From: a virus
Virus record (IMG/VR): IMGVR_UViG_3300030099_006908
Location: 30,846 to 94,845 of that record
Reading direction: 5' to 3' (one strand)
Length of the DNA: 64,000 nucleotides
The position numbers were made by a program, and so were the translations under genes. A model generated the notes under the pieces. It was not told the origin of the DNA, did no database searches, and saw only the letters and a list, made by a program, of their open reading frames with translations. Below are positions 6,595 to 30,150 of the stretch, piece by piece (positions within the stretch are counted from its first letter, which is position 1; each line of letters begins with the position of its first letter).

Positions 6595-6933
6595 ATGAAG
6601 GTTCATGTAAAAAACACAATAAAAAATGTTAAAAGGATTGACGTTAGGGGTTCGTCCGTAGATGAATCAGAAATTGATTTGAATTCAGGTCAGACTTTAA
6701 GCGTTCTTTACATTAGCGACCTTGGAGAAGGGCTTGTAAATATACACGTTAATGAAGAAACCACACTCTCAGGTGTAAGCGACAAAAATCTTGATTATAA
6801 TAAAGATAAAAATCTTGAATCCATGAAATACTGGACAGAGCAACCAGAGCCAGACACTACCGTAAACGGAGTTAGAAAAATAAATAGTAGGGCGAATCAG
6901 TCTAGACGAAGCTGTTGCGGAAGAAGGAGATAA
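6595..6933 (+). CDS. Hypothetical protein
   Basis: 112-aa ORF with basic/Cys C-terminus (RRSCCGRRR). Confidence 0.55.
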   Translation: MKVHVKNTIKNVKRIDVRGSSVDESEIDLNSGQTLSVLYISDLGEGLVNIHVNEETTLSGVSDKNLDYNKDKNLESMKYWTEQPEPDTTVNGVRKINSRANQSRRSCCGRRR

Positions 6934-6935
6934 TT

Positions 6936-7202
6936 ATGAGCAAATCATTAAAATGTAAAGGTCAAATATATGTAGAGGTTGGTGGAGACTTTACATTTCT
7001 TGACAACTCTGGAGGAACTTATGGGGAAAAATGGCAGGGCGGAAGATATATTCCAATACATAAAGTCATAAACTACAAAGATGGATATTCAGACATAGTT
7101 TTAGGAAACGGCCATGTAATGCCGCAAGTTCTGCTTGGTGAAATAGGGTATGTTATAGGAAAGCCCGAGATAGAAACAGTAGACTCGATAAAAGAAATGT
7201 AA
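6936..7202 (+). CDS. Hypothetical protein
   Basis: AAGGAG RBS before ATG 6936. Confidence 0.55.
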   Translation: MSKSLKCKGQIYVEVGGDFTFLDNSGGTYGEKWQGGRYIPIHKVINYKDGYSDIVLGNGHVMPQVLLGEIGYVIGKPEIETVDSIKEM

Positions 7203-7221
7203 AAACTGCAAGAGTCTAACA

Positions 7222-7713
7222 ATGAATCAAGAGGACGAAAAACATCTTAGGTCTTTGCTAAGACATGTAGATAATGTGCGGCAATCTTCACTTCTTCTTG
7301 GTGAAAGAATTATAGAATCAGGAAATGAAAAGCTAGGTATTGACCTAATATCAAATGGCCAAATACATGACTACTCAAAGTTTAGAGGGTGTGAGTGGCT
7401 CTATCTTAGGCCAGAATTTATTGACTCCACGAAAAAAGAGCTTTTTGATTCTGCTAAAAAACAGCATGTAAACAGCAACCCACATCACCCAGAATACTGG
7501 GGCTCAATACACCAAATGCCCAAAGTATATATAGCTGAAATGGTGTGTGACTGGTCTGCACGCTCACATGAACAAGGCAACGACTTGAGAGAGTGGATAA
7601 GGGAAAAAGGCACAAAGATTTTTGACATGACAACTCAATCAAAGGTATACAGGGAAATAAAGTTTTTTGTAGACTTACTACTAGAGCCTTCGTTTAAAAA
7701 CAATGCAAAATAA
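7222..7713 (+). CDS. DUF5662-like HD-fold protein
   Basis: HVDNV, HDYSK, HVNSNPHHPEYW, MP..YIAEMVCDW motifs. Confidence 0.7.
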   Translation: MNQEDEKHLRSLLRHVDNVRQSSLLLGERIIESGNEKLGIDLISNGQIHDYSKFRGCEWLYLRPEFIDSTKKELFDSAKKQHVNSNPHHPEYWGSIHQMPKVYIAEMVCDWSARSHEQGNDLREWIREKGTKIFDMTTQSKVYREIKFFVDLLLEPSFKNNAK

Positions 7714-7906
7714 TAAAAATAGCCTTCAGTCAGTGATGAAAGCCGTAATGCAAGATGAAAATCTAATAAAGGGCTACGCTTCTAAAAAGTGCAAGCAATG
7801 CTTAGGAAGAGGGTATTTAGAAATAAAATTTGCAGAAGAACTCCATGCACAGAATTATCTATGTGACTGCGTTCAAAAAAACGTAAAGAAAGAATTTGAA
7901 AAATAA
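7703..7906 (+). CDS. Small zinc-binding hypothetical protein
   Basis: CKQCLGRG...CDC. Confidence 0.5.
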   Translation: MQNNKNSLQSVMKAVMQDENLIKGYASKKCKQCLGRGYLEIKFAEELHAQNYLCDCVQKNVKKEFEK

Positions 7907-7911
7907 GAGCT

Positions 7912-8451
7912 ATGTCTTTTTCTGAAAAATCTTTAGAATATTTAAAAAATGTAAAAAATAAAATAGAGCCCATTGACAAACCATCTTGGACTGAGTATTT
8001 TATTACAATGGCAAAGCTAGCTAGCACAAGGAGCGCTGACGCAGAAACAAAACACGGATGCGTTATAGCCGATAAAAAAAACAGAGTTATAGGAGTGGGT
8101 TATAATAGCTTTCCTGCTAATATGCCAGATAATATTCTTCCAAATAAGAGACCAGAAAAATATAAATGGATGGTCCACGCAGAAAGAAATGCACTGGCAA
8201 ATTGTGTAGTTAGGCCAGAGGGATGTACGGCTTATATAACAGGTCGCCCATGCCTTGATTGCGCAAAATCTTTGTACCAAGAGGGTATAGAGCATTTTGT
8301 GTGCTTTGATGGGCACGGAACATATCGAGAAGAAGCAGAAGACAAAAGTATATTTGAAATTTTAGTAAAAAGTGGTGATATAAAAATAGAGTGGGTAAAG
8401 CCAGATTTTGACAAAATAATAAATTATTTGGCCTCAACAATTTCTCAGTAA
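7912..8451 (+). CDS. dCMP deaminase
   Basis: W.EYF..MA..ASTRS, GVGYNSFP, HAERNA, PCLDC zinc motifs. Confidence 0.9.
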   Translation: MSFSEKSLEYLKNVKNKIEPIDKPSWTEYFITMAKLASTRSADAETKHGCVIADKKNRVIGVGYNSFPANMPDNILPNKRPEKYKWMVHAERNALANCVVRPEGCTAYITGRPCLDCAKSLYQEGIEHFVCFDGHGTYREEAEDKSIFEILVKSGDIKIEWVKPDFDKIINYLASTISQ

Positions 8452-8454
8452 TTA

Positions 8455-8466
8455 GGTGTATATTTA
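8455..8466 (+). promoter_or_regulatory. Candidate phage-specific promoter (GGTGTATA)
   Basis: GGTGTATATTTA in a 19-nt gap, 16 nt before ATG 8471, implying a near-leaderless transcript. Confidence 0.5.
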
Positions 8467-8470
8467 TTAC

Positions 8471-8680
8471 ATGACAAAAATTAATCTTAATAAAAAAAGT
8501 GAAGAGCAGTTTTTTGAAATAACCATACAGGTAAGAGATAAAAACGGCAACCCCACGGGCAAAACAAAAACTTTTGGCAGCGATAGCGCGACCAGTTTTT
8601 CTGGATGGTACAATAAAAATAACGCGCCTAAGTCCAAAAAAAACAAAAAGAATAGAAAAAAGAATAACCGGAATAGCTAA
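8471..8680 (+). CDS. Small basic hypothetical protein
   Basis: Lys/Asn-rich C-terminus; abuts the next gene. Confidence 0.5.
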   Translation: MTKINLNKKSEEQFFEITIQVRDKNGNPTGKTKTFGSDSATSFSGWYNKNNAPKSKKNKKNRKKNNRNS

Positions 8681-9811
8681 ATGCCAGTTACCCATAGAGT
8701 ATTTTACGCAGCAAAACGTGCAGGAATTGGTCCCGAGGGAGCAAAGGGCACAGCAAATTATACTCAAATGCATGGTCTTCAGTCCGTGGGTATGAGAACT
8801 ACTTTTAATCTATCTCAAACCTTTGAGCTTGGACAGTTATCTGTTTACGAATATATCGAGGGTCTTCCAGAGGTTTCTATAGATGTAGAAAAAGTTTTAG
8901 ACGGATATTGCCCAGTATATGTACTCGCAACAGGACAAGGCACTCAGGCTACAGACAGCACTCTCATTGGCAGGGCAGACGCCAAATGCGATTTTTTAAT
9001 TTCTGTTTTTACAGACAGCCAAACTGTTGCAGGCGGTGTTAGTGATGCCGAAGGTACGGGAGGCGCACTACAGCACGTTCTATGCTCAGGAGTTATGGTT
9101 GACTCTGTTTCGTATAGCATTGGAATAGATGGATATGCCACAGAAAATGTTACGTTAGTAGGACAACACAAAACATGGCACTCTGCAGGAAATGCAGGTT
9201 TTTCTGGAACAGGATTCAAGGCTGGCTTTATATCTTCTGCCGGTAACGATGCCCCTAAGTCTTTAAGCACTAATCTTAATATGGCTGGCGAAGACTACCA
9301 GAATGATGGCGGCGTACAGACAAGAGAGGATGTTTTGCTTGGACCCAACGGAACTACGCTACCATCAGACATAGTTGGCGTAAACAATGAAGGTAAAGTA
9401 GTTATGAATCCAGATGGAAACTTTCACGTTCACCTGCAAAGCCTTTCCTTCTCAGTAGATATGGGCAGAGAGCAGATTTTTGAATTGGGTAGAAGAGGTC
9501 TATATCACAGGTATGTTCCATTTCCAGTTCAGGTTAATGCTGAAATAGGAGTTCTCTCACAATCTGGAGACTTAATAGAGGCCCACTCAGACAGGGGAAT
9601 TGATAGAAGCGCATACCCAATACAGTTAATAATGAGAGAGGGCCTTGTAGTTGATTTAGGCAGTCAAAATAGGCTCTCTTCCGTTAATGTAACGGGAGGA
9701 GATGTAGGGGGCGGAAACGAACAAATAACATACAGTTATCAAAATTTTAATGACTTTACTGTATATCATCCAGAAGACCCAAGGTCATTCTCTAGGCCCT
9801 CAGTGCCTTAG
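8681..9811 (+). CDS. Probable virion structural protein (tail-tube-like, internally duplicated)
   Basis: Beta-rich; two copies of LQS...FELG...Y; downstream of a GGTGTATA motif. Confidence 0.5.
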   Translation: MPVTHRVFYAAKRAGIGPEGAKGTANYTQMHGLQSVGMRTTFNLSQTFELGQLSVYEYIEGLPEVSIDVEKVLDGYCPVYVLATGQGTQATDSTLIGRADAKCDFLISVFTDSQTVAGGVSDAEGTGGALQHVLCSGVMVDSVSYSIGIDGYATENVTLVGQHKTWHSAGNAGFSGTGFKAGFISSAGNDAPKSLSTNLNMAGEDYQNDGGVQTREDVLLGPNGTTLPSDIVGVNNEGKVVMNPDGNFHVHLQSLSFSVDMGREQIFELGRRGLYHRYVPFPVQVNAEIGVLSQSGDLIEAHSDRGIDRSAYPIQLIMREGLVVDLGSQNRLSSVNVTGGDVGGGNEQITYSYQNFNDFTVYHPEDPRSFSRPSVP

Positions 9812-9848
9812 TGCTATTATAAATTAAGGAAATAAAATAGGACAGAAT

Positions 9849-12329
9849 ATGTACTCTTACGAAGATGCTTTAAGTAGCTCCACAGAATATTTTAAAGGAG
9901 ACGAACTTGCCGCGAAAGTTTTTGTTGACAAGTATGCTCTTAGAGATAATAATAAAAATCTTTTAGAAAAAACGCCTGACGATATGCATCTTCGAATTGC
10001 GTCTGAGATAGCCAGAGTAGAGAAATCAAAATATAAAGAAACAAAAATAAAACCTCTATCTAAACAACTGGTCTATGAATATCTAAAAGGGTTTGAAAAA
10101 ATTGTGCCTCAAGGAAGCCCCATGTACGGCATAGGAAATACAAACCAGTGCGTTACTTTATCTAACTGCTATGTGCTTGATTCTCCAGAAGATAGCTATG
10201 GAGGCATTCACTGGACGGATGAGCAGATTACTCAAATTTCTAAAAGAAGAGGCGGTGTAGGAATAGATATTTCTAAACTTCGCCCATCCGGAGAGTCCAC
10301 TAAGAACTCTTCCCGAACTACCAGCGGCATTGCGAGCTGGATGGAAAGGTTTTCAAATAGCACAAGAGAAGTAGGTCAAGATGGTCGTCGTGGTGCACAG
10401 ATGCAATCTATTAGCGTTCATCATCCAGAAGTCCTTACTTTTGCCAACATTAAAAAAGACAGAACAAAGGTTACGGGCGCAAACATATCAATAAGACTTA
10501 CGGACGAATTTTTAAAAGCTGTGTATAGCGATAGCAAATACGAACAAAGATGGCCCGTTGATTCTAAAGAACCAAAGATAAAGAATAAGGTTTCAGCCAG
10601 AGAAGTATGGAGACAAATAATTGAAAACGCACATGACAATGCAGAGCCAGGGCTTTTGTTTTGGGACAACGTAATTGAGAATAGCCCAGCCGACTGCTAT
10701 CCAGAGGAAGGGTTTGAGACTATCTCTACCAACCCCTGTTCAGAACTTCCTCTCTCTGCCCTAGACTCATGCAGGCTTCTTCTACTGAACTTATTTGGCT
10801 ATGTAAAAGAGCCGTTCACAAGCAAGGCTTATTTTGACTATCAAGAATTCTTTGAGGACGCTAAGATTGCGCAAAGAATGATGGATGATATCATAGACCT
10901 CGAAATGGAGGCCATAGAGCGAATTATTAAAAAGATTGAGTCTGACCCAGAATCAAAAGATATTAAAGCCAGAGAGCTTGATATGTGGCATAGAATCTAT
11001 GATAATTGCAAAAACGGCAGGAGAACGGGTTTAGGGATTACGGCTCTTGGCGACACAATCGCCGCGCTTGGATTTAAGTATGCTAGCGAGCGTAGCATTC
11101 AAGAGACAGACCAAATTTTTAAAACTCTGAAATTTGCATCCTACATCTCGTCGGCAGAAATGGCAGAAGACCTTGGCCCATTTCCGGTATGGAACTACGA
11201 GAAAGAATCCGGAAACAAATTCCTAAAAAGAATGTACAGCGAGAAGCTGGATTTTGGCGGGTTAGATATCAAGGGTAAAGATGTTCTTGAGAAGGTGAAA
11301 CAAGTGGGTCGTAGAAACATATCTAATCTAACATGCGCTCCTGCGGGAAGCGTTAGCATTGAATGTCAAACAACCAGTGGTATTGAGCCCATGTTCATGC
11401 CCTCTTATACAAGAAAGAAAAAGGGCTATCCCTCTGATTCTGACTTCCGAACAGACGAAGTTGACCAGAACGGAGACCACTGGATGTACTTCAAGGTGTA
11501 TCACCCAAAGCTGCAAGACTGGATGAACGTCAATCCAGATAAAAAATTTGAAGATTCTCCTTGGTTTGGAGCGTGTGCAGAAGACTTAAACTGGAAGCAG
11601 CGAGTTAAACTTCAAGCTGCGGCACAACAGCACATCGACCACGCTATTAGTTCTACTTTAAATCTACCAGAAGATGTTTCAGTAGAACAAGTGGAAGAGA
11701 TTTATGAAGAAGCCTGGGAAAGAGGCTGTAAGGGAATCACTGTATACAGAAAGAATTGCAGGACAGGAGTTCTGGTAGAAGAGGCCAAGCAAAAGCAAGA
11801 AGAAGCTGCCGAGCAAACTGTAGAAGACGAGAAAAGGCCTAAAGAGCTACCCTGTGATGTGTACCACATTAGTGTACAGTCAAATAAGTATTTTGTTTTA
11901 GTTGGACTAAAAGATGGAAAACCATATGAAGTTTTCGCTGGCAAGAACGGGTTTCTCAACAAGGGTATCAAGAGCGGAAAAATAATCAGAAAAAGAAGAA
12001 AGGTATACAGAGCAGAGTTTGACGACGACCACCAAACTGAACTTTCACCAATTACCGCAGCCTGTACAGACCACGAAGAAACAATTACCAGGCTCATATC
12101 TGGCTATTTAAGACTTGGCGTTGATATGCATTTTATAGTGCAACAGCTAGAAAAAGTAGACGGAGAGATGCATTGTTTTGCTAGAAGCGTGTCAAGAGCG
12201 CTAAAGAAGTATATTCCTGATGGAACAGAGGAGAAGGGCGAGTCTTGCCCTGAATGTGGATATTCGTCTTTAGTTAGACAGGAGGGTTGCGTGACTTGTT
12301 TATCTTGTGGATGGAGTAAGTGCCTGTAA
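9849..12329 (+). CDS. nrdJ: Class II (adenosylcobalamin-dependent) ribonucleotide reductase
   Basis: LSNCYV, RGGVG, TNPCSELPL, RRTGLG, APAGSVS..TTSGIEP, HAISSTLNLP, KGITVYR; C-terminal CPECG..EGCVTCLSCGWSKC; no nrdB in the window. Confidence 0.92.
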   Translation: MYSYEDALSSSTEYFKGDELAAKVFVDKYALRDNNKNLLEKTPDDMHLRIASEIARVEKSKYKETKIKPLSKQLVYEYLKGFEKIVPQGSPMYGIGNTNQCVTLSNCYVLDSPEDSYGGIHWTDEQITQISKRRGGVGIDISKLRPSGESTKNSSRTTSGIASWMERFSNSTREVGQDGRRGAQMQSISVHHPEVLTFANIKKDRTKVTGANISIRLTDEFLKAVYSDSKYEQRWPVDSKEPKIKNKVSAREVWRQIIENAHDNAEPGLLFWDNVIENSPADCYPEEGFETISTNPCSELPLSALDSCRLLLLNLFGYVKEPFTSKAYFDYQEFFEDAKIAQRMMDDIIDLEMEAIERIIKKIESDPESKDIKARELDMWHRIYDNCKNGRRTGLGITALGDTIAALGFKYASERSIQETDQIFKTLKFASYISSAEMAEDLGPFPVWNYEKESGNKFLKRMYSEKLDFGGLDIKGKDVLEKVKQVGRRNISNLTCAPAGSVSIECQTTSGIEPMFMPSYTRKKKGYPSDSDFRTDEVDQNGDHWMYFKVYHPKLQDWMNVNPDKKFEDSPWFGACAEDLNWKQRVKLQAAAQQHIDHAISSTLNLPEDVSVEQVEEIYEEAWERGCKGITVYRKNCRTGVLVEEAKQKQEEAAEQTVEDEKRPKELPCDVYHISVQSNKYFVLVGLKDGKPYEVFAGKNGFLNKGIKSGKIIRKRRKVYRAEFDDDHQTELSPITAACTDHEETITRLISGYLRLGVDMHFIVQQLEKVDGEMHCFARSVSRALKKYIPDGTEEKGESCPECGYSSLVRQEGCVTCLSCGWSKCL

Positions 12330-12700
12330 TGCCTACATATGTATTTAAATGCGAAGAATGCGACTATGAACTTGAAGTTGAGCAAAGTATAAAGAAGCCC
12401 ACACCAAATAGAAAAAAGTGTCCAGAATGCGGAAAAAATAAATTAGAGAGACTTTTATTTGCCCCGCACGTTTACAATAAGCCTGGAGACGATAAAATAT
12501 CTATAGGTCTTCTCTCAGACAGAAATGCCGAGAGATTTTCACAAGACCAAAAAGAGGCTATAGATAAGAAAAATGGCGTTAAGAGAAAAAAGAAATCCTC
12601 AAAAAACAACTTCTGGGAAACCTCTAAGGAAAATATGAAAAAAATATCAGTAATGACGCCCGCGCAAAAAAAGAAGTATATAGAGACTGGTGAAAAATGA
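12329..12700 (+). CDS. FmdB-family zinc-ribbon protein
   Basis: MPTYVFKCEEC...EVEQSI...CPECG..LERL. Confidence 0.8.
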   Translation: MPTYVFKCEECDYELEVEQSIKKPTPNRKKCPECGKNKLERLLFAPHVYNKPGDDKISIGLLSDRNAERFSQDQKEAIDKKNGVKRKKKSSKNNFWETSKENMKKISVMTPAQKKKYIETGEK

Positions 12701-13050
12701 AATCGGAAAAAACAGAAGACGATAAAAAGAAAGAGATGTTGTCCAGGAAAAGAGAATATATTCCCGGCTCCACCGTTTCTGAAGTAGTGGTTGACGTTAT
12801 AACCTACAGAGCATACATAGACAAACAAACAAAGCAGAAAATATTTGAGACAGTAGATGTATCCTCAAAACAATTCTCAGCAAAAATTCCTTCTGACGAC
12901 GCTCTTGAAGCCGCTGAAATAGTGTCTGGTAATCTTGAAAAAAATCAGTCAGTCTGGGATGTCTTTGATAGTATAGAGTCCGAGAATGAAATGCTAAGAC
13001 AGATTTCAGAAGAACAACACAAACAGAAAAATATTAGCGATGACGAATAA
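12697..13050 (+). CDS. Hypothetical protein
   Basis: ATGA overlap with the previous gene. Confidence 0.55.
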   Translation: MKSEKTEDDKKKEMLSRKREYIPGSTVSEVVVDVITYRAYIDKQTKQKIFETVDVSSKQFSAKIPSDDALEAAEIVSGNLEKNQSVWDVFDSIESENEMLRQISEEQHKQKNISDDE

Positions 13051-21118: not shown

Positions 21119-22143
21119 TAATTACATACTTCAGAAGCAGCTCATTCAATGCTTATGGAATGTGCCCGCAGCAATATTTTTTGTCTTATGTTTTGGGCAT
21201 ACCATCTCCTGGAGGCAAAAAAGCAGAGAAGGGCACTGTTGTCCACAAGGTTCTTGAGTGCTTGGCCCATGGAAAGAAAGCGGAGCAGGACGGTTCTTCT
21301 ACGTTTAACGATGATGCCCTGGGGGAACAGCCGACAAACAGAATCTATGAGGATGATTTTGTAAATGAACTCAGCAGGCTTTCTTTTGATTATTACACAC
21401 AGAAATCTATACATGACTTTAGCGCAAGAGATTACAAAGATTGTGAGAAGTGGGCATGGAAAGCTATTGAATATTCTGATGGGGCGTATGACCCTAGAAA
21501 GAGAAGGATTATTGATGCTGAACCACACTTCGATATAACAATTGATGAGCCTTGGGCTGAATACGATTACATCATGCCAGACGGCTCAAGGCTTCATGGC
21601 AATCTTTCTATAAAGGGGACTGTAGACCTTATTACTGATTCTGGCAATGGTGTGTATGAGGCGACCGACTGGAAAACAGGAATGAGGAAGGATTGGGCGA
21701 CAGGAGAAATCAAAGACTTCTGGAAGCTATGCGGCGACCCACAACTAAGAATATATCACTACGCCCTTACACACCTATATCCAGAAGCAAAACAAATAGT
21801 TCCTAGTATATACTTCATCAATGATGGGGGTCCGTTCACAATGGCCTATGATGATTCAGACATAGAGGCCACAAAGAAGATGCTAAAGCAAAGGTTTGCA
21901 AAAATCAAGGAGGTGGTAAGACCTCAACTTCTAACAGGATACGACAGATGGAAGTGCAACTCATTCTGCCACTACGGGAAAACACAGCATTCTTCTGGAA
22001 AGATTAATCCCAGGACAGGCGAGCCCTATACTATCTGCCAGTATATGGCGGACAAAACAAAGAAGTGTGGAATAGATGCCGTGATTGCGGAAGACACGCG
22101 CAAGGGACATACGATAGATTATTATCAAGACCCAGGAGCATAA
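21115..22143 (+). CDS. PD-(D/E)XK RecB/Cas4-like exonuclease
   Basis: SS.....CP..YF, GTVVHKVLE, KGTVDL..DWKTG, QLRIY, C-terminal Cys cluster. Confidence 0.82.
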   Translation: MIITYFRSSSFNAYGMCPQQYFLSYVLGIPSPGGKKAEKGTVVHKVLECLAHGKKAEQDGSSTFNDDALGEQPTNRIYEDDFVNELSRLSFDYYTQKSIHDFSARDYKDCEKWAWKAIEYSDGAYDPRKRRIIDAEPHFDITIDEPWAEYDYIMPDGSRLHGNLSIKGTVDLITDSGNGVYEATDWKTGMRKDWATGEIKDFWKLCGDPQLRIYHYALTHLYPEAKQIVPSIYFINDGGPFTMAYDDSDIEATKKMLKQRFAKIKEVVRPQLLTGYDRWKCNSFCHYGKTQHSSGKINPRTGEPYTICQYMADKTKKCGIDAVIAEDTRKGHTIDYYQDPGA

Positions 22144-22160
22144 AATGAAAAATAGAATAC

Positions 22161-22188
22161 TTGACAACTATCAAAACTCTGATATATT
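22161..22188 (+). promoter_or_regulatory. Sigma-70-type promoter
   Basis: TTGACA (22161), 16-bp spacer, TATATT in an intergenic gap. Confidence 0.6.
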
Positions 22189-22244
22189 TTATATACAAAT
22201 TACATTTTACGCTAATTACACCGAAGAGGATGTTTGGACTTATT

Positions 22245-23381
22245 ATGCCTAATATACTAATACTTGGAGCGGGAGGCATCGGCCTCCCAATCGCATCAGC
22301 GTTAAAGCACGAAGAATATAATCTTGTTCTGTCTGATTATTCTGAGGATGCCATTGGTAAAGCTAAGGACTATTTCGGTAGAACTAAGTTTGACAGTGAA
22401 TGCTCCCTTGACTTTCATGTTGGCGATGCCAAGGATTATGTTCTAGAGAATAAGCATGACTTTGACATAGTGGTATCAGCTTTGCCATACTACATGAACA
22501 AAGAAATAGCGTTCGCGTGTGTTTCCTCTTGTATAGCTTACGTTGACCTTGGCGGGCATGTAGACACAACCAATTATATTCGCAAGATTACTGAGGAAAT
22601 TGGATGCGCTCCAGTGGCTAGTGACCAAGGACTAGCTCCAGGCTTAGTTAATATCTGTGCGGAAGAGGCTTTTGAAGCCGTTAAGGAAAACAAATACCGT
22701 AGTGCAAAAATAAAGATGGCCGTAGGCGGGCTTCCAGAAAAGGTGGGATTAAATCCTCTAGACTACATTGTTACTTGGTCTATTGATGGTTTGATTAACG
22801 AGTACAGGGGAGAGGCAGAGATTCTGTTGGGGGCAGAAAAGAAGAACGTACCCACACTCACTGGCCTAGAAACGATGACTGTTGACGGAGATGAGCTTGA
22901 GGCGTTTTACACAGCCGGTGGAAGCTCTCACACAATACAATCTATGCTTAACCAAACCTCCCGTCCAATACCTGACGTTACATACAAGACGTTGCGATAC
23001 CCAGGACACTTGGAGATGATAAAGTGGCTCATGGAAGAAATTGAGATGGACACACAAGAGTTGGCACATCTATTTAAGTATGGTTGCGCGGCTTTGAATG
23101 AAAAGGATATTGTGAAGTTCTATGTCGAGGCTACTAATGGGAGCTTGTCTTACAAAAGAGAGCATACCTTCTATGCAAGCGAAGAGTTCTCTGCTATGCA
23201 GCGGTCTACCGCATACAGCGCAGCAGCGGCGATTCAGACAATGTATATAAATAGGCCGATACCAAACGACTCTTTTGCCCTCGATTATTCATACTTCTGT
23301 AGAGATTTGTTTCATGAGCGTTTTAGAGATGCTTTAAATAGAGACCGGCCAGAGAAAGAGAAAGAGTGGTTGGTCTCATGA
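22245..23381 (+). CDS. Saccharopine dehydrogenase / lysine 6-dehydrogenase family oxidoreductase
   Basis: ILILGAGGIG, YVDLGG, GLAPGLVN, VGGLP, TWSIDGLINEY, LEAFYTAGG, YKTLRYPGH. Confidence 0.85.
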   Translation: MPNILILGAGGIGLPIASALKHEEYNLVLSDYSEDAIGKAKDYFGRTKFDSECSLDFHVGDAKDYVLENKHDFDIVVSALPYYMNKEIAFACVSSCIAYVDLGGHVDTTNYIRKITEEIGCAPVASDQGLAPGLVNICAEEAFEAVKENKYRSAKIKMAVGGLPEKVGLNPLDYIVTWSIDGLINEYRGEAEILLGAEKKNVPTLTGLETMTVDGDELEAFYTAGGSSHTIQSMLNQTSRPIPDVTYKTLRYPGHLEMIKWLMEEIEMDTQELAHLFKYGCAALNEKDIVKFYVEATNGSLSYKREHTFYASEEFSAMQRSTAYSAAAAIQTMYINRPIPNDSFALDYSYFCRDLFHERFRDALNRDRPEKEKEWLVS

Positions 23382-25339
23382 CATTTTTCCCACTTCATGT
23401 TCACAGTCACGACAGCCTTCTTGATGGTCTTAGTAAGCCTAAAGATATTGCTAAGAGATGTACAGAGCTTGGTCTAAAAGGATGCGCTTTAACAGACCAC
23501 GGCGTTCTCTCTGGTGCAGTCAGCTTCGTAGAAGCCATGAAGTCTGCCGGACTAAAACCTATACTTGGATGCGAGTTCTATATTTGTGAGGGCGACCCTA
23601 CTGACAAGGAGAATAGGACTCGCTCCAACACACACCTCGTCGTGCTTGCCAAGAACAATCAAGGCTGGCAAGACCTAATCGCTGCAACATCCCAGTCCAA
23701 TCACCCAGACTATTTCTACTATGCTCCAAGACTAGACTTGGCTACACTCAAGAAGTTTTGCACAGGAAACTGGATTGCGTTTAGTGGACACATGGGTTCG
23801 CATCTAGCTAACGATATGTTCATAGACCACAAAGAAGCCTACTCTGCCCAAAGCTACGACGAAGCAACCAAGATGGTTGATAAAGATTGGGTAAATAAGG
23901 TTTCTGGTAAAGCTAAGGAACTTGAGGATGTCTTTGGCAAAGGAAACTTCTTCCTAGAAATACAGCTAATAGACGTAGACAATCTTCCTGCTTCTGGCGT
24001 AGTCGCAAAAGGGCTTAGATACCTAAGTAAGAAAATCGACATTCCATGTGTCGCAACACCAGACGCTCACTATGCTTGTCCAGAGGATGCAGATGACCAG
24101 AGAGTTCTTCTGTCTAATCACCCAAGCATAGATACTCCTCTCAAGGACATCTACAAGAAGATGGTTTCAGGAGACGATATAAGCCTGGGAGCTTTCTTTA
24201 AGTCCAGAAATTATTACATTCCTGGACATGACGAAATGATGAAACTCCACACAGAGGAAGAGGTTGCAAATACAGAGAAGATTGCCGATATGTGCGAAGA
24301 ATATACAATTACTGGAAAACCGATGCCGCCTAGATTTCCCCTGCCAGAAAAAGTAACAGCAATTGACAGGCTCAGAGAAAGATGCCGTGAGGGTTGGCAA
24401 AAAAGATGGCCCGCAATTAAAAGCGTTATAGACAGCACTGAACACACGAAAGAAGAGTATGCCGAACGATTTGAGATGGAAATATCCATTCTTGAGAACG
24501 CAAATCTAGCGGACTACTTCTTAATTGTTGACGACATCATCAACTGGGCTAGAAAAGACGGTCAGCTTACAGGAGCCGGTAGAGGCTCTGCTGACGGCTC
24601 TCTAATTCTATATCTTTTAGAAGTAGGTCATATAGACCCAATCAAACACGATTTAATGTTCGAGAGATTTTACAACGCCGGACGAAATACAGCAGACAGA
24701 GTGTCCCTTCCTGATGTGGATATGGACTTCGAGAAGCTTGGTCGTGAGCGTATAATTGGCTATATAAACGACAGGTTTGGTGAAGATAGAGTTTCTCAAA
24801 TGATTACGTTTAGCAAGATGCAAGGACGGGCTGTACTGCAAGATGTAATGAGAGCGCACAGCGCATGTAGTCCAGAAGAGAGAAACAGAATCACAAAGAA
24901 CATACCCGATGAAGCAGACATTTCTGACCAGCTTGAAGATATGCGTCAAGCAGACAAAGATTCTGGCGGCGACGGTAGCGCTAGCATAATTCAGTGGGCT
25001 TTGGAGAACAGAGAAGAGGACTTGAAACAGTGGTGCTACCTTGGCGAAAACGGAAACCTTCAGGGTCCAATGTCAAAGATATTTGAACAAGCTATACGCA
25101 TGGAGGGAACAAAGCGTTCTCGCAGTAAACACGCAGCGGGAATTGTGATTGCCAACGAACCTCTTGCTAAGATTTGTCCCATGGTCTACGACAAAAGCTC
25201 TGGCGAAAGCATTGCTGGAATGGAAATGAATGACCTGGAGTCTATGGGACATATCAAGTTTGACATTCTTGGAATTGCAATTCTAGATAAGATTCACGGA
25301 GTTCAAGACCTATTGTCTACCGGAGAGTTTCGTGATTGA
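23378..25339 (+). CDS. dnaE: DNA polymerase III alpha, N-terminal half (PHP, palm, thumb)
   Basis: LHVHSHDSLLDG, ALTDHG, PILGCE, GRGSA, FERF, LPDVDMDF, HAAGIVI, KFDILG; ends shortly after KFDILG. Confidence 0.92.
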   Translation: MTFFPLHVHSHDSLLDGLSKPKDIAKRCTELGLKGCALTDHGVLSGAVSFVEAMKSAGLKPILGCEFYICEGDPTDKENRTRSNTHLVVLAKNNQGWQDLIAATSQSNHPDYFYYAPRLDLATLKKFCTGNWIAFSGHMGSHLANDMFIDHKEAYSAQSYDEATKMVDKDWVNKVSGKAKELEDVFGKGNFFLEIQLIDVDNLPASGVVAKGLRYLSKKIDIPCVATPDAHYACPEDADDQRVLLSNHPSIDTPLKDIYKKMVSGDDISLGAFFKSRNYYIPGHDEMMKLHTEEEVANTEKIADMCEEYTITGKPMPPRFPLPEKVTAIDRLRERCREGWQKRWPAIKSVIDSTEHTKEEYAERFEMEISILENANLADYFLIVDDIINWARKDGQLTGAGRGSADGSLILYLLEVGHIDPIKHDLMFERFYNAGRNTADRVSLPDVDMDFEKLGRERIIGYINDRFGEDRVSQMITFSKMQGRAVLQDVMRAHSACSPEERNRITKNIPDEADISDQLEDMRQADKDSGGDGSASIIQWALENREEDLKQWCYLGENGNLQGPMSKIFEQAIRMEGTKRSRSKHAAGIVIANEPLAKICPMVYDKSSGESIAGMEMNDLESMGHIKFDILGIAILDKIHGVQDLLSTGEFRD

Positions 25340-25922
25340 GTTAGAGAAACTAAAAACTGAATACTCATCATGTGAAATATGCTCTCTGTGCCCTAAGAAG
25401 AGCGGCATAAATGGTGTGGTAAAGTCTAGCGGCCCCGTTTCTTCTTTAGCGATAATTGGAGAAGCTCCGGGAGCAGACGAAGACTCTGCCGGAGAACCTT
25501 TTGTCGGAAGGGCGGGCAAGATGCTTGACAAGCTGCTTGAGGGAGCTAAAATAAAAAGGCATCAGGTTTTTATTACAAACGCTGTGAAGTGCAGGCCCAC
25601 ACAAAACAACGGAAAGAAAAATAGAACTCCCACTGCTGATGAATGCGAGTCTTGTAGCCCATGGCTATACAAAGAAATAGATTTAGTTAAACCAAAGGTT
25701 ATTGTAACTCTTGGTAAAACATCGGCTGAAGCTGTTTTGCCTTTACCTAAAAATTTTACACTTGGTAATTATATAAATAAGTCTCATGAATCTAGCATTG
25801 GAAACGGTGCGTACACAGTTGTTCCGTGTTGGCACCCGTCTTACCTTATGCAGCATGGCAGAAAGAAGTTTGATGAGGCTGTAGACTGTTTTAAGTTGGC
25901 AAAGAAATTGGTATTGAAATGA
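25332..25922 (+). CDS. udg: Family-4 (Fe-S) uracil-DNA glycosylase
   Basis: CEICSLC, IGEAPGADED, PFVGRAG, TNAVKCRP, HPSYL. Confidence 0.9.
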   Translation: MIELEKLKTEYSSCEICSLCPKKSGINGVVKSSGPVSSLAIIGEAPGADEDSAGEPFVGRAGKMLDKLLEGAKIKRHQVFITNAVKCRPTQNNGKKNRTPTADECESCSPWLYKEIDLVKPKVIVTLGKTSAEAVLPLPKNFTLGNYINKSHESSIGNGAYTVVPCWHPSYLMQHGRKKFDEAVDCFKLAKKLVLK

Positions 25923-26647
25923 ATTATAACTCTATATGCTGTTACGATTATGAGACTGGTTCTCCCGACTCATCTACGTGTTCTATCATACAAATAGCCG
26001 CAGAGATGATACACGGAAGGAATTTAAATGTAGTTGACAAATTTTCTGCCTATGTCCGCCCGGACTTTGACGACAAAGAATCCACGACAGACGAAACAAT
26101 AGATTGGCATTGCAGGAACAAAGGCATGTCAAAAAAGAAGTTTGTAGATATGCTAAACGAGTGCCCTCCAATAAATGTTGTATGGAAAAACTTTTCCTCT
26201 TGGATTGACAAATACAACTGGGGTAAGACTAATAAGAGTGGCTATCATGCTCCGGTGTCTGCTGGATACAATATACTTGGATTTGACAATCCTATTACTG
26301 ATAGGCACTGCAAAATATTTGGACCGACTGAAAAAGACAGGCGCAGCGGCGAAGAGAGGCCAAGGATGTTTAATCAAATATACAGCTTTGATTTAATGCA
26401 GCATGTCTGGTATTGGTTTGAGAATAACAGCGAGCTTAAAAACCAAAAGCTAACAACCGTCTTAGAGTACATGGGTGTGCCGGAGGAGGTGACTGCAAAC
26501 GCTCATGACGCAGAGTTTGATGTTGAGTGGACATCTAAGGTCATCATAAAGCTGTTGAAAACATCTAGATGGATGACTGGATGGAATGAACAAAAGCAGA
26601 AAAGAAGACTTGAATTTGCTAACGCATTTGCACAGGAGTTTAAATGA
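25919..26647 (+). CDS. DEDDh 3'-5' exonuclease (Pol III epsilon-like)
   Basis: ExoI DYETG, ExoII GYNILGFD, ExoIII AHDAEFDV. Confidence 0.88.
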   Translation: MNYNSICCYDYETGSPDSSTCSIIQIAAEMIHGRNLNVVDKFSAYVRPDFDDKESTTDETIDWHCRNKGMSKKKFVDMLNECPPINVVWKNFSSWIDKYNWGKTNKSGYHAPVSAGYNILGFDNPITDRHCKIFGPTEKDRRSGEERPRMFNQIYSFDLMQHVWYWFENNSELKNQKLTTVLEYMGVPEEVTANAHDAEFDVEWTSKVIIKLLKTSRWMTGWNEQKQKRRLEFANAFAQEFK

Positions 26648-28344
26648 GTAAGGTTAGATGGCCGTGTGGATGTGAGCTTCCAGTAAAGAGTTGTTCTGAC
26701 ACACCAATGGTGATTAACGTAGAGTTCGGAGATACGCTTCCTAAAGGTATAGAGCTAGATGTCTACAGCATGAATCTTAATTGTGAAGCAACTTGGGACA
26801 TGATATGCAGCGGCAGGACGAAAGGCGTTTTTCAGCTAGAGAGCGCACTTGGTCGTCAATGGGCCAAGAAACTAGAACCAAGAAGCATTGAAGAGCTTGG
26901 AGCGCTAGGCGCTTTACTTCGTCCAGGGTGCCTTAGAGCCATGTCTGGAAATCCACCAAAGAGCATGACGCAAAGATATTGCGATAGAAAGCATGGTGTT
27001 GAACAAGTCGTTTATCCTCACGAATCATTGGAACCGATTCTTAAAAAGACGCAAGGCGTACTAACTTTTCAAGAGCAAGCCATGAAGATAGCTGTAGTTC
27101 TTGCTGGTTTCAATGAGCAGCAAGCGGACATCCTCCGCAAGGCTATCGGTAAAAAGAAAGCCGATGTTATGCATGAGGTTAAGAAGTCCTTTCTTGAGGG
27201 CGCTAAAAAAACAGGTATAGTATCAGAAGAACTGGCTGAGGAAATTTTTGGCTGGATTCAGGAGTCCCAGAGATACTCTTTTAACAAAAGCCACGCAGAC
27301 GCATATGCGCTCAATGGATATTGGAGCGCGTTTTGCAAAACACATATGCCGCTTGAGTTTTATTGCTCTTGGCTTAGGGGTGCAGCGTGGAAAGGCGCAA
27401 AGCAATACGAGGAAATTTACGACCTAGTAAATGACGCAAAGGTAAACAACATAGACGTTCTTCCCCCAACGCTTGCAGACAAAAGAAACACTTTCTACAT
27501 CAAAGACAAGAAGGTTTATTTCGGTCTTTCTAGCATCAGAGGCATAGGCTCTGCTGTAATCGAGAAGATAGTAGAAAAGCTAACTGATGTAGAAAAAAAG
27601 CTGGGCAGAGGTATTGGCGCATGGATGTGGCTTGAATATTTAAAGTATGGAACAGAATGTGTATCATCCAACGTAACCGAGGGGATGATAAAGGCTGGGG
27701 CTTTAGACTTCTTTGAGCGTTCAAGAAACGAGATGCTTTATGAGTATTCTATATGGTCGCAACTTAGCCCAACAGAAAAAAAGTGGATTGTAAATGAATA
27801 CAGCGGATACAAACTGATTGAAGCATTAAAGCGGTGTCAGCCAAAAAGAGTGATGAAAAATAAAGTCCAGGTTGCTGGTGGAGGATGTGTAAATGATAAG
27901 CGCTCTAATTTTGTAGGAGATTTAATCACATCCTTAAAAAATCCACCTCACAAGTTGCAAGATAGCATGGATTGGATTGCTTGGAATGAACAAAAAACAC
28001 TGGGCGCTCCAATAACCTGTAGCAGAGTGGATGCGCTGGAAAGGGGAATAGAGGCTAATTGTACCTGCAAGGAATTCATTACGACAAAAAGAAAAGACTA
28101 TATGAAGTTTGCTGTAGAAGTCACCAAGGTGAAAGTAGTAAAAACAAAAAATGGAAAAAACCCTGGTAAAGAAATGGCTTTTCTTACCCTAGAAGATAAC
28201 AGTTGCTCTTTAGATGACGTAGTTTGTTTTCCAGATATTTTTCAAGAGTGTCGAGACGCCATATATGAAGGAAACACAATATTGGTTCAGGGAGATAGAG
28301 GACGAAATGACTCTCTTGTTGTCGGTCAAATATGGCAAATTTAA
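26644..28344 (+). CDS. dnaE: DNA polymerase III alpha, C-terminal half (fingers, HhH, OB fold)
   Basis: GVFQLES, LLRPG, FQEQAM, ADILRKAIGKK, YSFNKSHA, FGLSSIRGIG, MAFLTLED. Confidence 0.92.
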   Translation: MSKVRWPCGCELPVKSCSDTPMVINVEFGDTLPKGIELDVYSMNLNCEATWDMICSGRTKGVFQLESALGRQWAKKLEPRSIEELGALGALLRPGCLRAMSGNPPKSMTQRYCDRKHGVEQVVYPHESLEPILKKTQGVLTFQEQAMKIAVVLAGFNEQQADILRKAIGKKKADVMHEVKKSFLEGAKKTGIVSEELAEEIFGWIQESQRYSFNKSHADAYALNGYWSAFCKTHMPLEFYCSWLRGAAWKGAKQYEEIYDLVNDAKVNNIDVLPPTLADKRNTFYIKDKKVYFGLSSIRGIGSAVIEKIVEKLTDVEKKLGRGIGAWMWLEYLKYGTECVSSNVTEGMIKAGALDFFERSRNEMLYEYSIWSQLSPTEKKWIVNEYSGYKLIEALKRCQPKRVMKNKVQVAGGGCVNDKRSNFVGDLITSLKNPPHKLQDSMDWIAWNEQKTLGAPITCSRVDALERGIEANCTCKEFITTKRKDYMKFAVEVTKVKVVKTKNGKNPGKEMAFLTLEDNSCSLDDVVCFPDIFQECRDAIYEGNTILVQGDRGRNDSLVVGQIWQI

Positions 28345-28345
28345 C

Positions 28346-28375
28346 TTGACATTGCTTGTTTTGCGCTGTTATCAT
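28346..28375 (+). promoter_or_regulatory. Sigma-70-type promoter at the start of the glycan island
   Basis: TTGACA (28346), 18-bp spacer, extended -10 TGtTATCAT. Confidence 0.6.
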
Positions 28376-28413
28376 AATATATAAGTCAAGTTATACAAAT
28401 TGGGCATTTTTGA

Positions 28414-30150
28414 ATGAGTGAAAAGTTTAGAAAATTAAGGATTCTGTGGTGCGGAGAAGCTAGCTTCCTGCATACCGGCTATGCAGTTTACGCAAAAGAG
28501 GTTCTTACCAGACTGTATAATACAGGCAAATACAAGATAGCAGAGATGGCTTGCTATGCTAGCCATGACAACCCCAATATTAATCAAGCCCCTTGGCGTG
28601 TATATCCTACAATGCCAACAAGCCAATCTGAAGCCGATGCTTATGCTTCAAATCAAACCTATCAATTTGGAGAGTGGAGGTTTGATGACATTTGCTTAGA
28701 CTTTAGACCAGATGTTGTGATAGATATAAGAGACTGGTGGATGATTGAGTACCAGCAAAGAGCCGCGTTTAGAAAATTTTACAAGTGGGCAATAATGCCA
28801 ACCGTAGACTCTCATCCACAGCAAGAACAATATCTAGCGACTTATATGGATGCAGATGCCGTGTTTACATACTCTGAATATGGCAGAGACGTTCTAGAAA
28901 ACGAAACGAACGGCCACATAAAAGTTGAGGGAGTTCCTTCTCCTGGAGCAAATTTTGATGCGCTGAAGCCACACCCAAATAAAAAACAACATAGAGAGCT
29001 TTTTGGGTTTGTCGATGATGTCAACATAATAGGAACGGTTATGAGAAATCAGCGTAGAAAACTTTATCCTAATTTAATAAGTTCCTTTAGGAATATGCTG
29101 GACAATAATCCAGACTTGCAATCAAACACATATTTATATCTTCATACTTCATATCCAGACCTGGGATGGGACCTGCCCTACTTTATAAAAAAGTACAACA
29201 TGGGCAGTCATACGATATTGACCTACAAATGTTTAAGCTGTGGAAGTTTCTTCCCGTCGTTTTTTCAGGGCGCCAAGACTTCTTGTCAAAAATGCGGAAA
29301 GATAAACGCTGTTTTACCAAACACAAGTCAAGGCCTAACAACTGAAGAGCTTGGGGCCGTTATGAATTGGTTTGATATTTATGTGCAATACTCTGTTTGC
29401 GAAGGATTTGGCATGCCACAAGTCGAAGCCGCCGCATGTGGTGTTCCATTAATTACAGTAAAATACTCTGCCATGGAAAGCGTTGGGGAAAAACTTAAAG
29501 CGGAATTCATAGAGCCAAAAAGCTTTTTCTGGGATTCTCCAACTCACTCAGAGAGAGCGATTCCTGATGATGAACAGCTATCAAAAAAAATCGCGGAGTT
29601 TGTTAGGTTGCCCAGAAGCATGAAAAGCAAGAAGGGCATGGATTGCTACATAGGAGCAAAAAGAAATTATACATGGGATAGGGCAGCAGCAATATGGGAA
29701 GACTATTTAGACAAAATTGAGCCAGAATCACACGAAGAAACATGGGAGTCTAAGCCAGAAATACACAGATATACAAATCAAATTCCAGATAACATACAAA
29801 ACAATAATGACTTTATTTCATGGGCAATTCAAAACGTTTGGGGTCAATCGGACAAAACAAATAGCTATGTGGCAATGAGACTTCTTAGAGATTTAAACGA
29901 CGGTAAGGCTCCTCAAGGCTTAGGAAGCATTCACTACGATGACAATAGCTTTGCAGACAATCAGATGTCGAGACAAGACTTTAGCGTAGAAGACGCTATG
30001 AACACTCTTGCTAATATGTGCGACTACAACAATTCTTGGGAAGAAAAAAGAGCGCAGTTATCTCAATCAAACGATTGGTCATCTATTCCCAGGCCATATT
30101 TTCTTTCTTTAGTAAAACCAGATATAAATACAACTAACCTAGCAGATTAA
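28414..30150 (+). CDS. GT-B (GT4-like) glycosyltransferase with zinc-ribbon insert
   Basis: TGYAVY, MRNQRRK, EGFGMPQVEAAACGVP; CLSC...CQKC insert. Confidence 0.85.
   Translation: MSEKFRKLRILWCGEASFLHTGYAVYAKEVLTRLYNTGKYKIAEMACYASHDNPNINQAPWRVYPTMPTSQSEADAYASNQTYQFGEWRFDDICLDFRPDVVIDIRDWWMIEYQQRAAFRKFYKWAIMPTVDSHPQQEQYLATYMDADAVFTYSEYGRDVLENETNGHIKVEGVPSPGANFDALKPHPNKKQHRELFGFVDDVNIIGTVMRNQRRKLYPNLISSFRNMLDNNPDLQSNTYLYLHTSYPDLGWDLPYFIKKYNMGSHTILTYKCLSCGSFFPSFFQGAKTSCQKCGKINAVLPNTSQGLTTEELGAVMNWFDIYVQYSVCEGFGMPQVEAAACGVPLITVKYSAMESVGEKLKAEFIEPKSFFWDSPTHSERAIPDDEQLSKKIAEFVRLPRSMKSKKGMDCYIGAKRNYTWDRAAAIWEDYLDKIEPESHEETWESKPEIHRYTNQIPDNIQNNNDFISWAIQNVWGQSDKTNSYVAMRLLRDLNDGKAPQGLGSIHYDDNSFADNQMSRQDFSVEDAMNTLANMCDYNNSWEEKRAQLSQSNDWSSIPRPYFLSLVKPDINTTNLAD

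Follow-up and report, generated by a model that had tools for sequence, protein, structure and literature searches.

Organization of the locus

The stretch of DNA analyzed here (the window, 64,000 nucleotides) belongs to an IMG/VR virus record of 94,845 bases (IMGVR_UViG_3300030099_006908), whose source is an uncultured marine jumbo phage. On its plus strand, DnaE, the alpha subunit of a bacterial-type (C-family) replicative DNA polymerase, is encoded in two pieces, an N-half and a C-half, with the genes of a family-4 uracil-DNA glycosylase (UDG) and a DEDDh 3'-5' exonuclease between them (Table 1). An earlier description of this locus from its letters alone (here, the original prediction) had already placed these two genes between the halves, with overlaps of 4 to 8 nt. 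The overlaps along the four genes are indeed 8, 4, and 4 nt, and the upstream gene, which encodes a saccharopine dehydrogenase-like protein, overlaps ATG 23378 of the N-half by another 4 nt. This ATG is the start equivalent to that of a close relative (L002). The two DnaE open reading frames (ORFs) are 1305 nt and two genes apart.

Table 1. Features of the two-gene DnaE locus in the window
Feature	Position	Strand	Remarks
DnaE N-half	23378..25339	+	653 aa from ATG 23378; 657 aa from in-frame GTG 23366
N-half/UDG junction	25322..25339	+	GGAGAG 25322-25327; UDG GTG 25332; N-half TGA 25337-25339; 8-nt overlap
Family-4 UDG	25332..25922	+	196 aa; GTG start
DEDDh 3'-5' exonuclease	25919..26647	+	242 aa
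Exonuclease/C-half junction	26634..26647	+	AGGAG 26634-26638; C-half ATG 26644; exonuclease TGA 26645-26647; 4-nt overlap
DnaE C-half	26644..28344	+	566 aa; fingers, helix-hairpin-helix region, OB fold
Split-specific head of the C-half	26644..26745	+	Residues 1-34; predicted beta-hairpin, invariant C8-G9-C10 turn

The UDG and C-half genes each have a Shine-Dalgarno site of their own, 4 nt 5' of the UDG GTG and 5 nt 5' of the C-half ATG. Together with the overlapping stop and start codons, these sites fit the translational coupling that had been proposed for the four genes, and we infer that the genes may be coupled in this way. Two IMG/VR contigs (L003 and L004) have the same four genes as the window, and in L002, which lacks a UDG gene, the exonuclease ATG occupies the place equivalent to the UDG start of the window. 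All four genes are under purifying selection, with dN/dS values of 0.014 to 0.042 between the window and near relatives (0.042 for the UDG, against L003).

The record comes from a metagenome assembly and is 35% complete according to CheckV, which might raise the suspicion of an assembly artifact or a decaying pseudogene. We consider the probability of either to be negligible: the arrangement is found in 89 other contigs besides the window, the dN/dS values are low, and the junctions are bridged by assemblies from other studies. The N-half/UDG junction is bridged by Logan contigs from three marine metagenome runs, each of a different study (one of these studies is possibly that of the source sample); in these runs, the UDG/exonuclease junction is bridged in two and the exonuclease/C-half junction in one. 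Because the junctions are bridged in other marine metagenome runs, misassembly, which the original prediction had named as a possible objection, is excluded.

A marine metatranscriptome library contains a 311-nt contig that corresponds to positions 26414-26724 of the window without differences and runs across the exonuclease/C-half junction. This contig is a weak hint of expression, as DNA carry-over is possible; RNA runs contained just 0.05 to 0.06 of the sampled words.

Two halves of one complete DnaE

The domain content of the two pieces indicates that together they make up one full DnaE, from PHP to OB. The N-half matches the PHP domain (PF02811, 3.1e-35) and the palm (DNA_pol3_alpha, PF07733, 1.9e-68), and even on its own it scores 454 bits with TIGR00594, above the cutoff of 434.35. 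The C-half matches the fingers (PF17657, 6.3e-45) and the helix-hairpin-helix region (HHH_6, PF14579, 9e-11), and its OB match is weak (PF01336, 17.9 bits, under the cutoff of 27). Full-length models are divided between the halves: the N-half and the C-half align with positions 4-573 and 579-1048 of NF004226 (1146 positions), 1-572 and 576-1021 of TIGR00594 (1022 positions), and 42-614 and 619-1059 of PHROG 405 (1190 positions), respectively. The catalytic Asp residues D450, D452, and D633 of the N-half are invariant (n = 43 sequences). The predicted structure of the C-half (pLDDT 89.5) was matched by Foldseek to Mycobacterium tuberculosis (Mtb) DnaE1 (7pu7; TMq 0.67 over 547 columns) and Taq alpha (3e0d; TMq 0.65), superposing on the C-terminal halves of these two proteins. 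Thus, PHP and palm as well as fingers, HHH, and OB regions are accounted for, and the locus departs from DnaE in that these reside on two ORFs instead of a single polypeptide.

In a structure-sequence alignment, N-half residue 641 corresponds to Taq alpha residue 626, C-half residue 34 to Taq residue 639, and C-half residue 38 to Escherichia coli residue 584. These alignments place the break in a loop at the start of the fingers, immediately past the third catalytic Asp motif. The N-half stops 21 residues past KFDILG (about 20 in the original prediction), GVFQLES stands at residues 61-67 of the C-half, and YSFNKSH is intact at residues 211-217, as had been claimed. By sequence, then, the break lies at the palm/fingers junction and away from the YSFNKSH site.

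Four complete relatives (CheckV 100%, 210 to 244 kb, one with terminal repeats), reached via contigs L033, L060, L063, and L077, were searched for other polymerases. Neither a family-A (PolA) nor a family-B (PolB) polymerase was found in these four genomes; therefore, by exclusion, the two-piece DnaE is the replicase.

Absence of splicing signals at the break

The hallmarks of split-intein DnaE are intein regions at the ends of the pieces and a break within YSFNKSH, and neither was found. At an E value of ≤0.01, no Hint, intein, or LAGLIDADG model of Pfam or NCBIfam (TIGR01445, TIGR01443, Hint, and Intein_splicing among them) matched either half. The intein models do match relatives: both NCBIfam models match L089 (34.0 bits against a cutoff of 24.5, and 17.3 against 15.6), and L100 is matched as well. 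The intein scan proposed along with the original prediction thus bears out its claim of a split without an intein. The C-half passes through the ends of two short DnaE models, presumably those of cyanobacterial halves, at positions 616-772 of 876 (NF007079) and 37-185 of 449 (NF005616).

It is scarcely credible to us that the halves are joined by an unrecognized protein or RNA splicing element or by recoding. Such joining might be suspected from the inteins that relatives carry in this gene and from the unknown origin of the C-half head (see below). However, (i) the intein N- and C-terminal models that both match L089 match neither half, and the N-half tail of about 21 residues aligns with unsplit relatives, which leaves no room for an N-intein; (ii) Rfam gives nothing in positions 22000-29000 at an E value of ≤1, hence no intron, and in relatives the halves are separated by one to seven protein genes; and (iii) the C-half has an ATG and a Shine-Dalgarno site of its own, and in 89 relatives the N-half ends with any of the three stop codons (TAA in 51, TGA in 28, and TAG in 10), so that a recoded stop is excluded.

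Inteins and endonuclease genes interrupt DnaE at other places in some relatives. In L100 (11522-13627), the YSFNKSH motif is interrupted in frame (YSFNK|S) by a mini-intein of about 135 residues. In L089 (9792-12787), L090, and L091, the C-half is a fractured gene with a split intein at the same position, in the order C-half piece ending in the intein N-region, a 309-aa ORF for a DUF559/Vsr-like endonuclease, and a piece starting with the intein C-region. In the 36%-identical L017 (4326-7177), the N-half is cut again, into pieces of 432 and 287 aa, by the gene of a 226-aa LAGLIDADG endonuclease, and the C-half lacks the Cys-Gly-Cys head.

Conservation, age, and distribution of the split

No DNA match to the window was found among GenBank phages, and the top protein identity was 34%; there is therefore no cultured relative. 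The set of relatives consists of 89 distinct IMG/VR contigs, which form 61 clusters at 90% N-half identity; the count omits the window, repeat loci of one contig, and five unsplit outgroups. Conservation of the split point, one of the checks that the original prediction called for, is strict: the N-half ends 18 to 34 residues past the third catalytic Asp motif in 89 of 89 contigs. An exonuclease gene follows in 74 of the 75 contigs with at least 3 kb of downstream DNA, the sole exception being L039, a close relative of which has the exonuclease 6 kb downstream. The C-half comes after the exonuclease in 72 contigs (L029 and L079 end before it), at a distance of 80 nt or less in 69 of these 72. 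The 120 proteins most similar to the N-half (50 to 96% identity) are all 486 to 703 aa long and contain PHP and palm domains only. These comparisons indicate that the split is real, old, and widespread across a very large clade of aquatic jumbo phages.

A search for longer proteins yielded eight relatives at 42 to 46% identity. The unsplit DnaE proteins (P0122 to P0129) have 1151 to 1396 aa, and five of the longer relatives were compared at the junction: P0124 and P0127 are unsplit and free of inteins, and P0122, P0123, and P0129 are continuous there and have inteins at other sites. P0124 has no relative in IMG/VR. In a quick tree of N-halves, six unsplit relatives are nested within the split clade in two places, and monophyly of the split forms is rejected by an approximately unbiased (AU) test (P = 0.003; the group was chosen after the tree had been viewed, and the tree is a quick one). 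The simplest reading suggested by this tree is that deletion has re-fused the two genes on two or more occasions.

The window and L003 were also compared along the whole region (22143-28353 against 6772-12982). Nucleotide identity is 87 to 94% up to position 25142, 85% across the junction, and 76 to 85% for most of the rest, and synonymous divergence is 0.5 in the N-half and 1.3 to 2.6 in the three downstream genes. The drop in identity and the jump in synonymous divergence point to a recombination break at or near the split point, and the halves may thus be exchanged between related phages.

Head of the C-half

The original prediction had noted a new N-terminal extension of the C-half. It consists of the first 34 residues, with the motif PCGC, and its first 20 or so residues are missing from the unsplit P0122, P0124, P0127, and P0129, which read straight through the junction; by this comparison, the head is new and specific to the split form. 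C8, C10, and C47 of the C-half are invariant (n = 45 sequences). The structure model, with a pLDDT of 91 over residues 1-10, has predicted strands at residues 2-5 and 11-14, and this beta-hairpin of about 20 residues with its Cys-Gly-Cys turn is likely a docking piece. The hairpin may bind zinc, and a hypothetical zinc site between the halves would be formed by C8, C10, and C47 together with C604 of the N-half; the position of C47 is also Cys in the unsplit P0124, and C47 is therefore not specific to the split.

Exonuclease

The five residues of a DEDDh nuclease (D10, E12, D123, H196, and D201) are invariant among 45 sequences, and the three Exo motifs and the predicted fold are those of the DnaQ-like DEDDh group. 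Foldseek matched the model (pLDDT 93.1) to numerous DEDDh nucleases with a probability of 1.00, among them the exonuclease domain of PolC (2p1j) and a DnaQ domain (8h18), and the sequence matches phrog_192, “DNA polymerase exonuclease subunit” (1.5e-20). On the strength of this PHROG label and of its fixed place beside the C-half, the exonuclease is most likely the proofreading partner of the two-piece DnaE, with putative roles in alpha binding and editing.

UDG and its association with DnaE

The UDG is, as judged by its sequence, a bona fide and active-looking family-4 enzyme. It matches PF03167 (1.6e-37) and TIGR00758 (138.9 bits against a cutoff of 125.3), and its best PDB matches are family-4 UDGs (4zbx, 7.5e-32; 1ui0, 1.5e-30). 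G43, E44, A45, G47, F57, N83, and C108 are invariant, and P46, C14, C17, C87, H168, and S170 are nearly so (n = 17); we take these residues to represent a GEAPG-type motif A, an HPS-type motif B, and the four Fe-S cysteines.

The gap UDGs form an old family. The 13 closest UDG relatives in IMG/VR (40 to 82% identity; 11 contigs beyond the near-twins of the window) are all encoded between the N-half and the exonuclease gene of a split DnaE. In a tree of 77 UDGs, 15 of the 16 gap UDGs group together (SH-aLRT 91), and the inner branching of this group matches the N-half tree. UDG presence amounts to 8 changes on the N-half tree, with the gene present in early-branching rows, the simplest reading being that it was anciently present and repeatedly lost. 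Among four relatives of 96 to 97% identity, L003 and L004 have the UDG and L001 and L002 do not, a clean, gene-sized difference. These patterns indicate that the UDG is optional without being a casual insert and that the gap UDGs are an old family traveling with the split polymerase.

UDGs are joined to DnaE elsewhere as well. The dnaE gene of Pseudomonas phage nickie (MG018927.1) has a C-terminal UDG fusion, ORF58 of Methanobacterium virus PhiF1 (MK994522.1) encodes a protein of UDG and a DnaE fragment beside DnaE, and L123 encodes an N-terminal UDG-DnaE fusion of 1345 aa. A UDG gene lies between the PHP part and the remainder of DnaE in L151, and L119 has the order N-half, 149-aa ORF, UDG, and C-half. 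The window UDG further matches 9qhs (“Putative DNA-directed DNA polymerase I”) at 2.7e-12.

UDG-fused A-family polymerases are present in phages with glycosylated thymidine. The idea that the UDG of the window is connected with thymidine modification was dropped; no homolog of thymidylate synthase was found in the window record, a search that is uninformative given its 35% completeness. A link of the UDG to DNA modification is conceivable by analogy, given the glycosyltransferase genes downstream (see below).

Proposed mechanism and alternatives

We consider it probable that the only polymerase of this phage is a two-gene DnaE whose halves reassemble noncovalently, with the exonuclease as its proofreader and the UDG as an optional add-on. 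Each half would be translated from its own start. The N-half (PHP, palm, thumb, and catalytic Asp residues) and the C-half (fingers, DNA-binding, and OB regions) most likely rejoin without a covalent bond, with the hairpin of the C-half as the likely docking piece, and the exonuclease encoded upstream of the C-half most likely proofreads. The stretch from the N-half to the exonuclease would be a variable slot that here holds the UDG, which most likely removes template uracil in step with replication, as in UDG-fused A-family polymerases, and would be optional and not required.

Several observations weigh against this interpretation. (i) The window record is far from complete (35%); no beta clamp was found in it (PF00712) or in the four complete relatives (PF02768). 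(ii) The exonuclease falls short of the Pfam RNase_T cutoff (22.7 against 24), its match to the Rv2179c-like family is also below cutoff, and no PDB sequence match was found at an E value of ≤0.01; by its model, it is a divergent DnaQ-fold nuclease whose orthology with epsilon is not demonstrable. The metal ligands of the PHP domain appear to be conserved, and the PHP domain could itself proofread, making a second editing activity possible. (iii) The UDG is present in the gap of 8 of the 89 contigs and missing in 81, and a UDG-superfamily gene was found nowhere in the four complete relatives; any role it has is therefore nonessential. The same slot is filled elsewhere by a glutamate dehydrogenase gene, by a 6-kb aldehyde dehydrogenase/aminotransferase cassette, by GNAT and MazG genes, or by the gene of an RCC1-repeat protein, and with such unrelated genes in it, position alone is no proof of a polymerase subunit. 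(iv) The support for the gap UDG group comes from a quick tree only.

The slot also holds small ORFs. In most relatives (at L041 8863-9042 and about 45 other loci), it contains a conserved ORF of about 59 residues with an invariant-looking Val-Ser-Cys-Cys motif and no Pfam family, and two further small-ORF families (71 to 101 aa) fill it in other lineages.

The original prediction had combined all four gene products into one four-part replicase. Of this proposal, the complete halves and the near-constant exonuclease in the gap stand, and an obligate UDG is not supported. An obligate four-subunit enzyme, in which the UDG would serve structure or processivity as poxvirus D4 does, would account for the 8-nt overlap of the UDG start with the N-half stop and for a gap UDG family that is old and specific to this polymerase, and it would supply the processivity factor that is missing from relatives in which no beta clamp was found. 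Nevertheless, we hold it to be very unlikely: the near-identical L001 and L002 lack precisely the UDG, most other contigs and all four complete genomes with the split polymerase do without it, and its conserved catalytic motifs fit an enzyme better than a scaffold.

Conversely, the UDG might be a passenger in a tolerated insertion site, engaged in general repair unlinked to the polymerase. Metabolic genes, GNAT and MazG, an RCC1-repeat protein, and several small-ORF families use the same slot, and the eight changes of UDG presence would be expected of a passenger. On the other hand, each of the 13 closest IMG/VR relatives sits in this very slot, UDGs are fused to or inserted into DnaE genes of unrelated phages in at least four arrangements, and replication-coupled action has been shown for A-family fusions (PMC13697223). 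A passenger UDG therefore appears unlikely to us.

As a tentative extension of the two-gene DnaE with an optional UDG, which we regard as possible although doubtful, the free-standing UDG may dock on the two-piece DnaE and scan the template for uracil ahead of synthesis. The break would then serve as an operon port at which accessory replisome modules (the UDG, the 59-residue Cys-Cys microprotein, and others) are swapped or dropped, with halves recombining and occasional re-fusion.

Genomic context

The four genes belong to a plus-strand replication module at 19 to 29 kb of the window, in the order DnaB-like helicase, primase, deoxynucleoside monophosphate (dNMP) kinase, PD-(D/E)XK nuclease, saccharopine dehydrogenase-like gene, four-gene DnaE set, and glycosyltransferases. 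A scan for promoters and terminators was at chance level (18 against 16.5 expected and 9 against 6.2 expected) and did not resolve operon boundaries. Downstream of the polymerase lies a stretch of about 30 kb (28414-58700) with glycosyltransferase and nucleotide-sugar genes; the large glycosyltransferase gene directly 3' of the C-half is kept in L002, L016, and L017.

The upstream neighbor of the N-half is the saccharopine dehydrogenase-like gene (22161-23381). In L029 (14028-15119) and L048, a homolog of it is found within the gap, where it is the final gene of the 6-kb cassette, which further comprises glyoxalase-like, aldehyde dehydrogenase, DDAH-like, class-III aminotransferase, and UDP-glucose dehydrogenase-like genes. 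The UDG-less L002 has a Cys-rich ORF of 292 aa (7126-8004) between the saccharopine dehydrogenase-like gene and the N-half, overlapping the N-half start; it has no Pfam match, and its C terminus looks HNH nuclease-like by eye.

Relation to known systems and significance

To our knowledge, C-family replicative polymerases are known as single chains or as halves rejoined by split inteins. Cyanobacterial split DnaE and fractured genes resemble the present locus in being a two-gene Pol III alpha, and L089 to L091 show the fractured arrangement inside the C-half. In contrast to the cyanobacterial case, the window has no intein halves and no trans-splicing, and the break is at the palm/fingers junction instead of YSFNKSH; in contrast to fractured genes, the intervening gene encodes a proofreading-type nuclease (plus a UDG) and not a homing endonuclease. 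The split polymerase of chimalliviruses is reportedly a further phage gene in pieces (PMC13648687). Each component taken by itself is of an already known kind, be it the split polymerase, the gene in pieces, or the UDG-linked polymerase (PMC2677866, PMC7824862, PMC13697223).

Dassa et al. (2009) described three metagenomic DnaE loci, probably of phages, with a gene between the pieces (PMC2677866). Intein-less phage genes in pieces that are cited in the same paper are gp43 of T4-like phages (Petrov and Karam) and NrdA of Aeh1, which is split by mobE (Friedrich et al.). As in these and the chimallivirus case, an essential replication enzyme is encoded here by two co-oriented genes, whose products would form a noncovalent complex. 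The known examples, however, are B-family polymerases or a ribonucleotide reductase; they are confined to narrow lineages, and a homing endonuclease is usually what splits them. The present enzyme is a C-family polymerase whose split site is the same throughout a very large clade of aquatic phages, with the gene of a putative functional partner in the gap. In T4-like jumbo phages, Iyer et al. (2021, PMC7824862) described a “minimal split Pol III alpha,” likewise a Pol III alpha-type catalytic module of a phage in two proteins. This enzyme differs in comprising the nucleotidyltransferase core alone, in being encoded by distant genes, and in accompanying a family-B replicase (PMC7824862); in the present case, the full PHP-to-OB architecture is cut once, the genes are neighbors, and the complete relatives have no other polymerase.

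Cryo-electron microscopy and assays have shown that A-family phage polymerases fused to a UDG remove dU from the template before synthesis reaches it (Missoury et al. 2026, PMC13697223); the role of poxvirus UDG is also mentioned there, and the terms “C-family” and “polymerase III” are absent from that paper. The SP15-like A-family polymerases share with the present locus the link of a family-4-type UDG to a phage replicase, and the window UDG is 31 to 34% identical to the UDG regions of phiLo and SP-15. Their UDG, however, is part of the polymerase chain, whereas here the polymerase is of the C-family and the UDG gene, known from sequence, is separate and dispensable; the locus is not a member of that group and may work alike. 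In nickie and PhiF1, a family-4 UDG is physically linked to all or part of a DnaE-type polymerase, as a one-chain fusion to an unsplit DnaE in unrelated lineages, with 24 to 31% identity to the window UDG. Full-text literature searches did not find a C-family replicase divided without an intein between palm and fingers, with an exonuclease gene nested in the break and a UDG recurring there; the single paper with the phrase “split DNA polymerase III” concerns the different, minimal enzyme.

Our findings show that the palm/fingers junction of DnaE can be cut in nature. The locus offers a natural system in which to study how the halves come together with each other, with a proofreader, and with optional repair modules, and the split site and the small putative docking hairpin could guide the design of engineered split polymerases. 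Replication-coupled uracil repair is established for B-family viral polymerases. By analogy, the UDG of the split DnaE would extend it to bacterial-type polymerases, and pairs of relatives at 96% identity with and without the UDG provide a ready natural comparison. If the UDG does dock on DnaE, this would be the first case of read-ahead uracil sensing by a C-family replicase.

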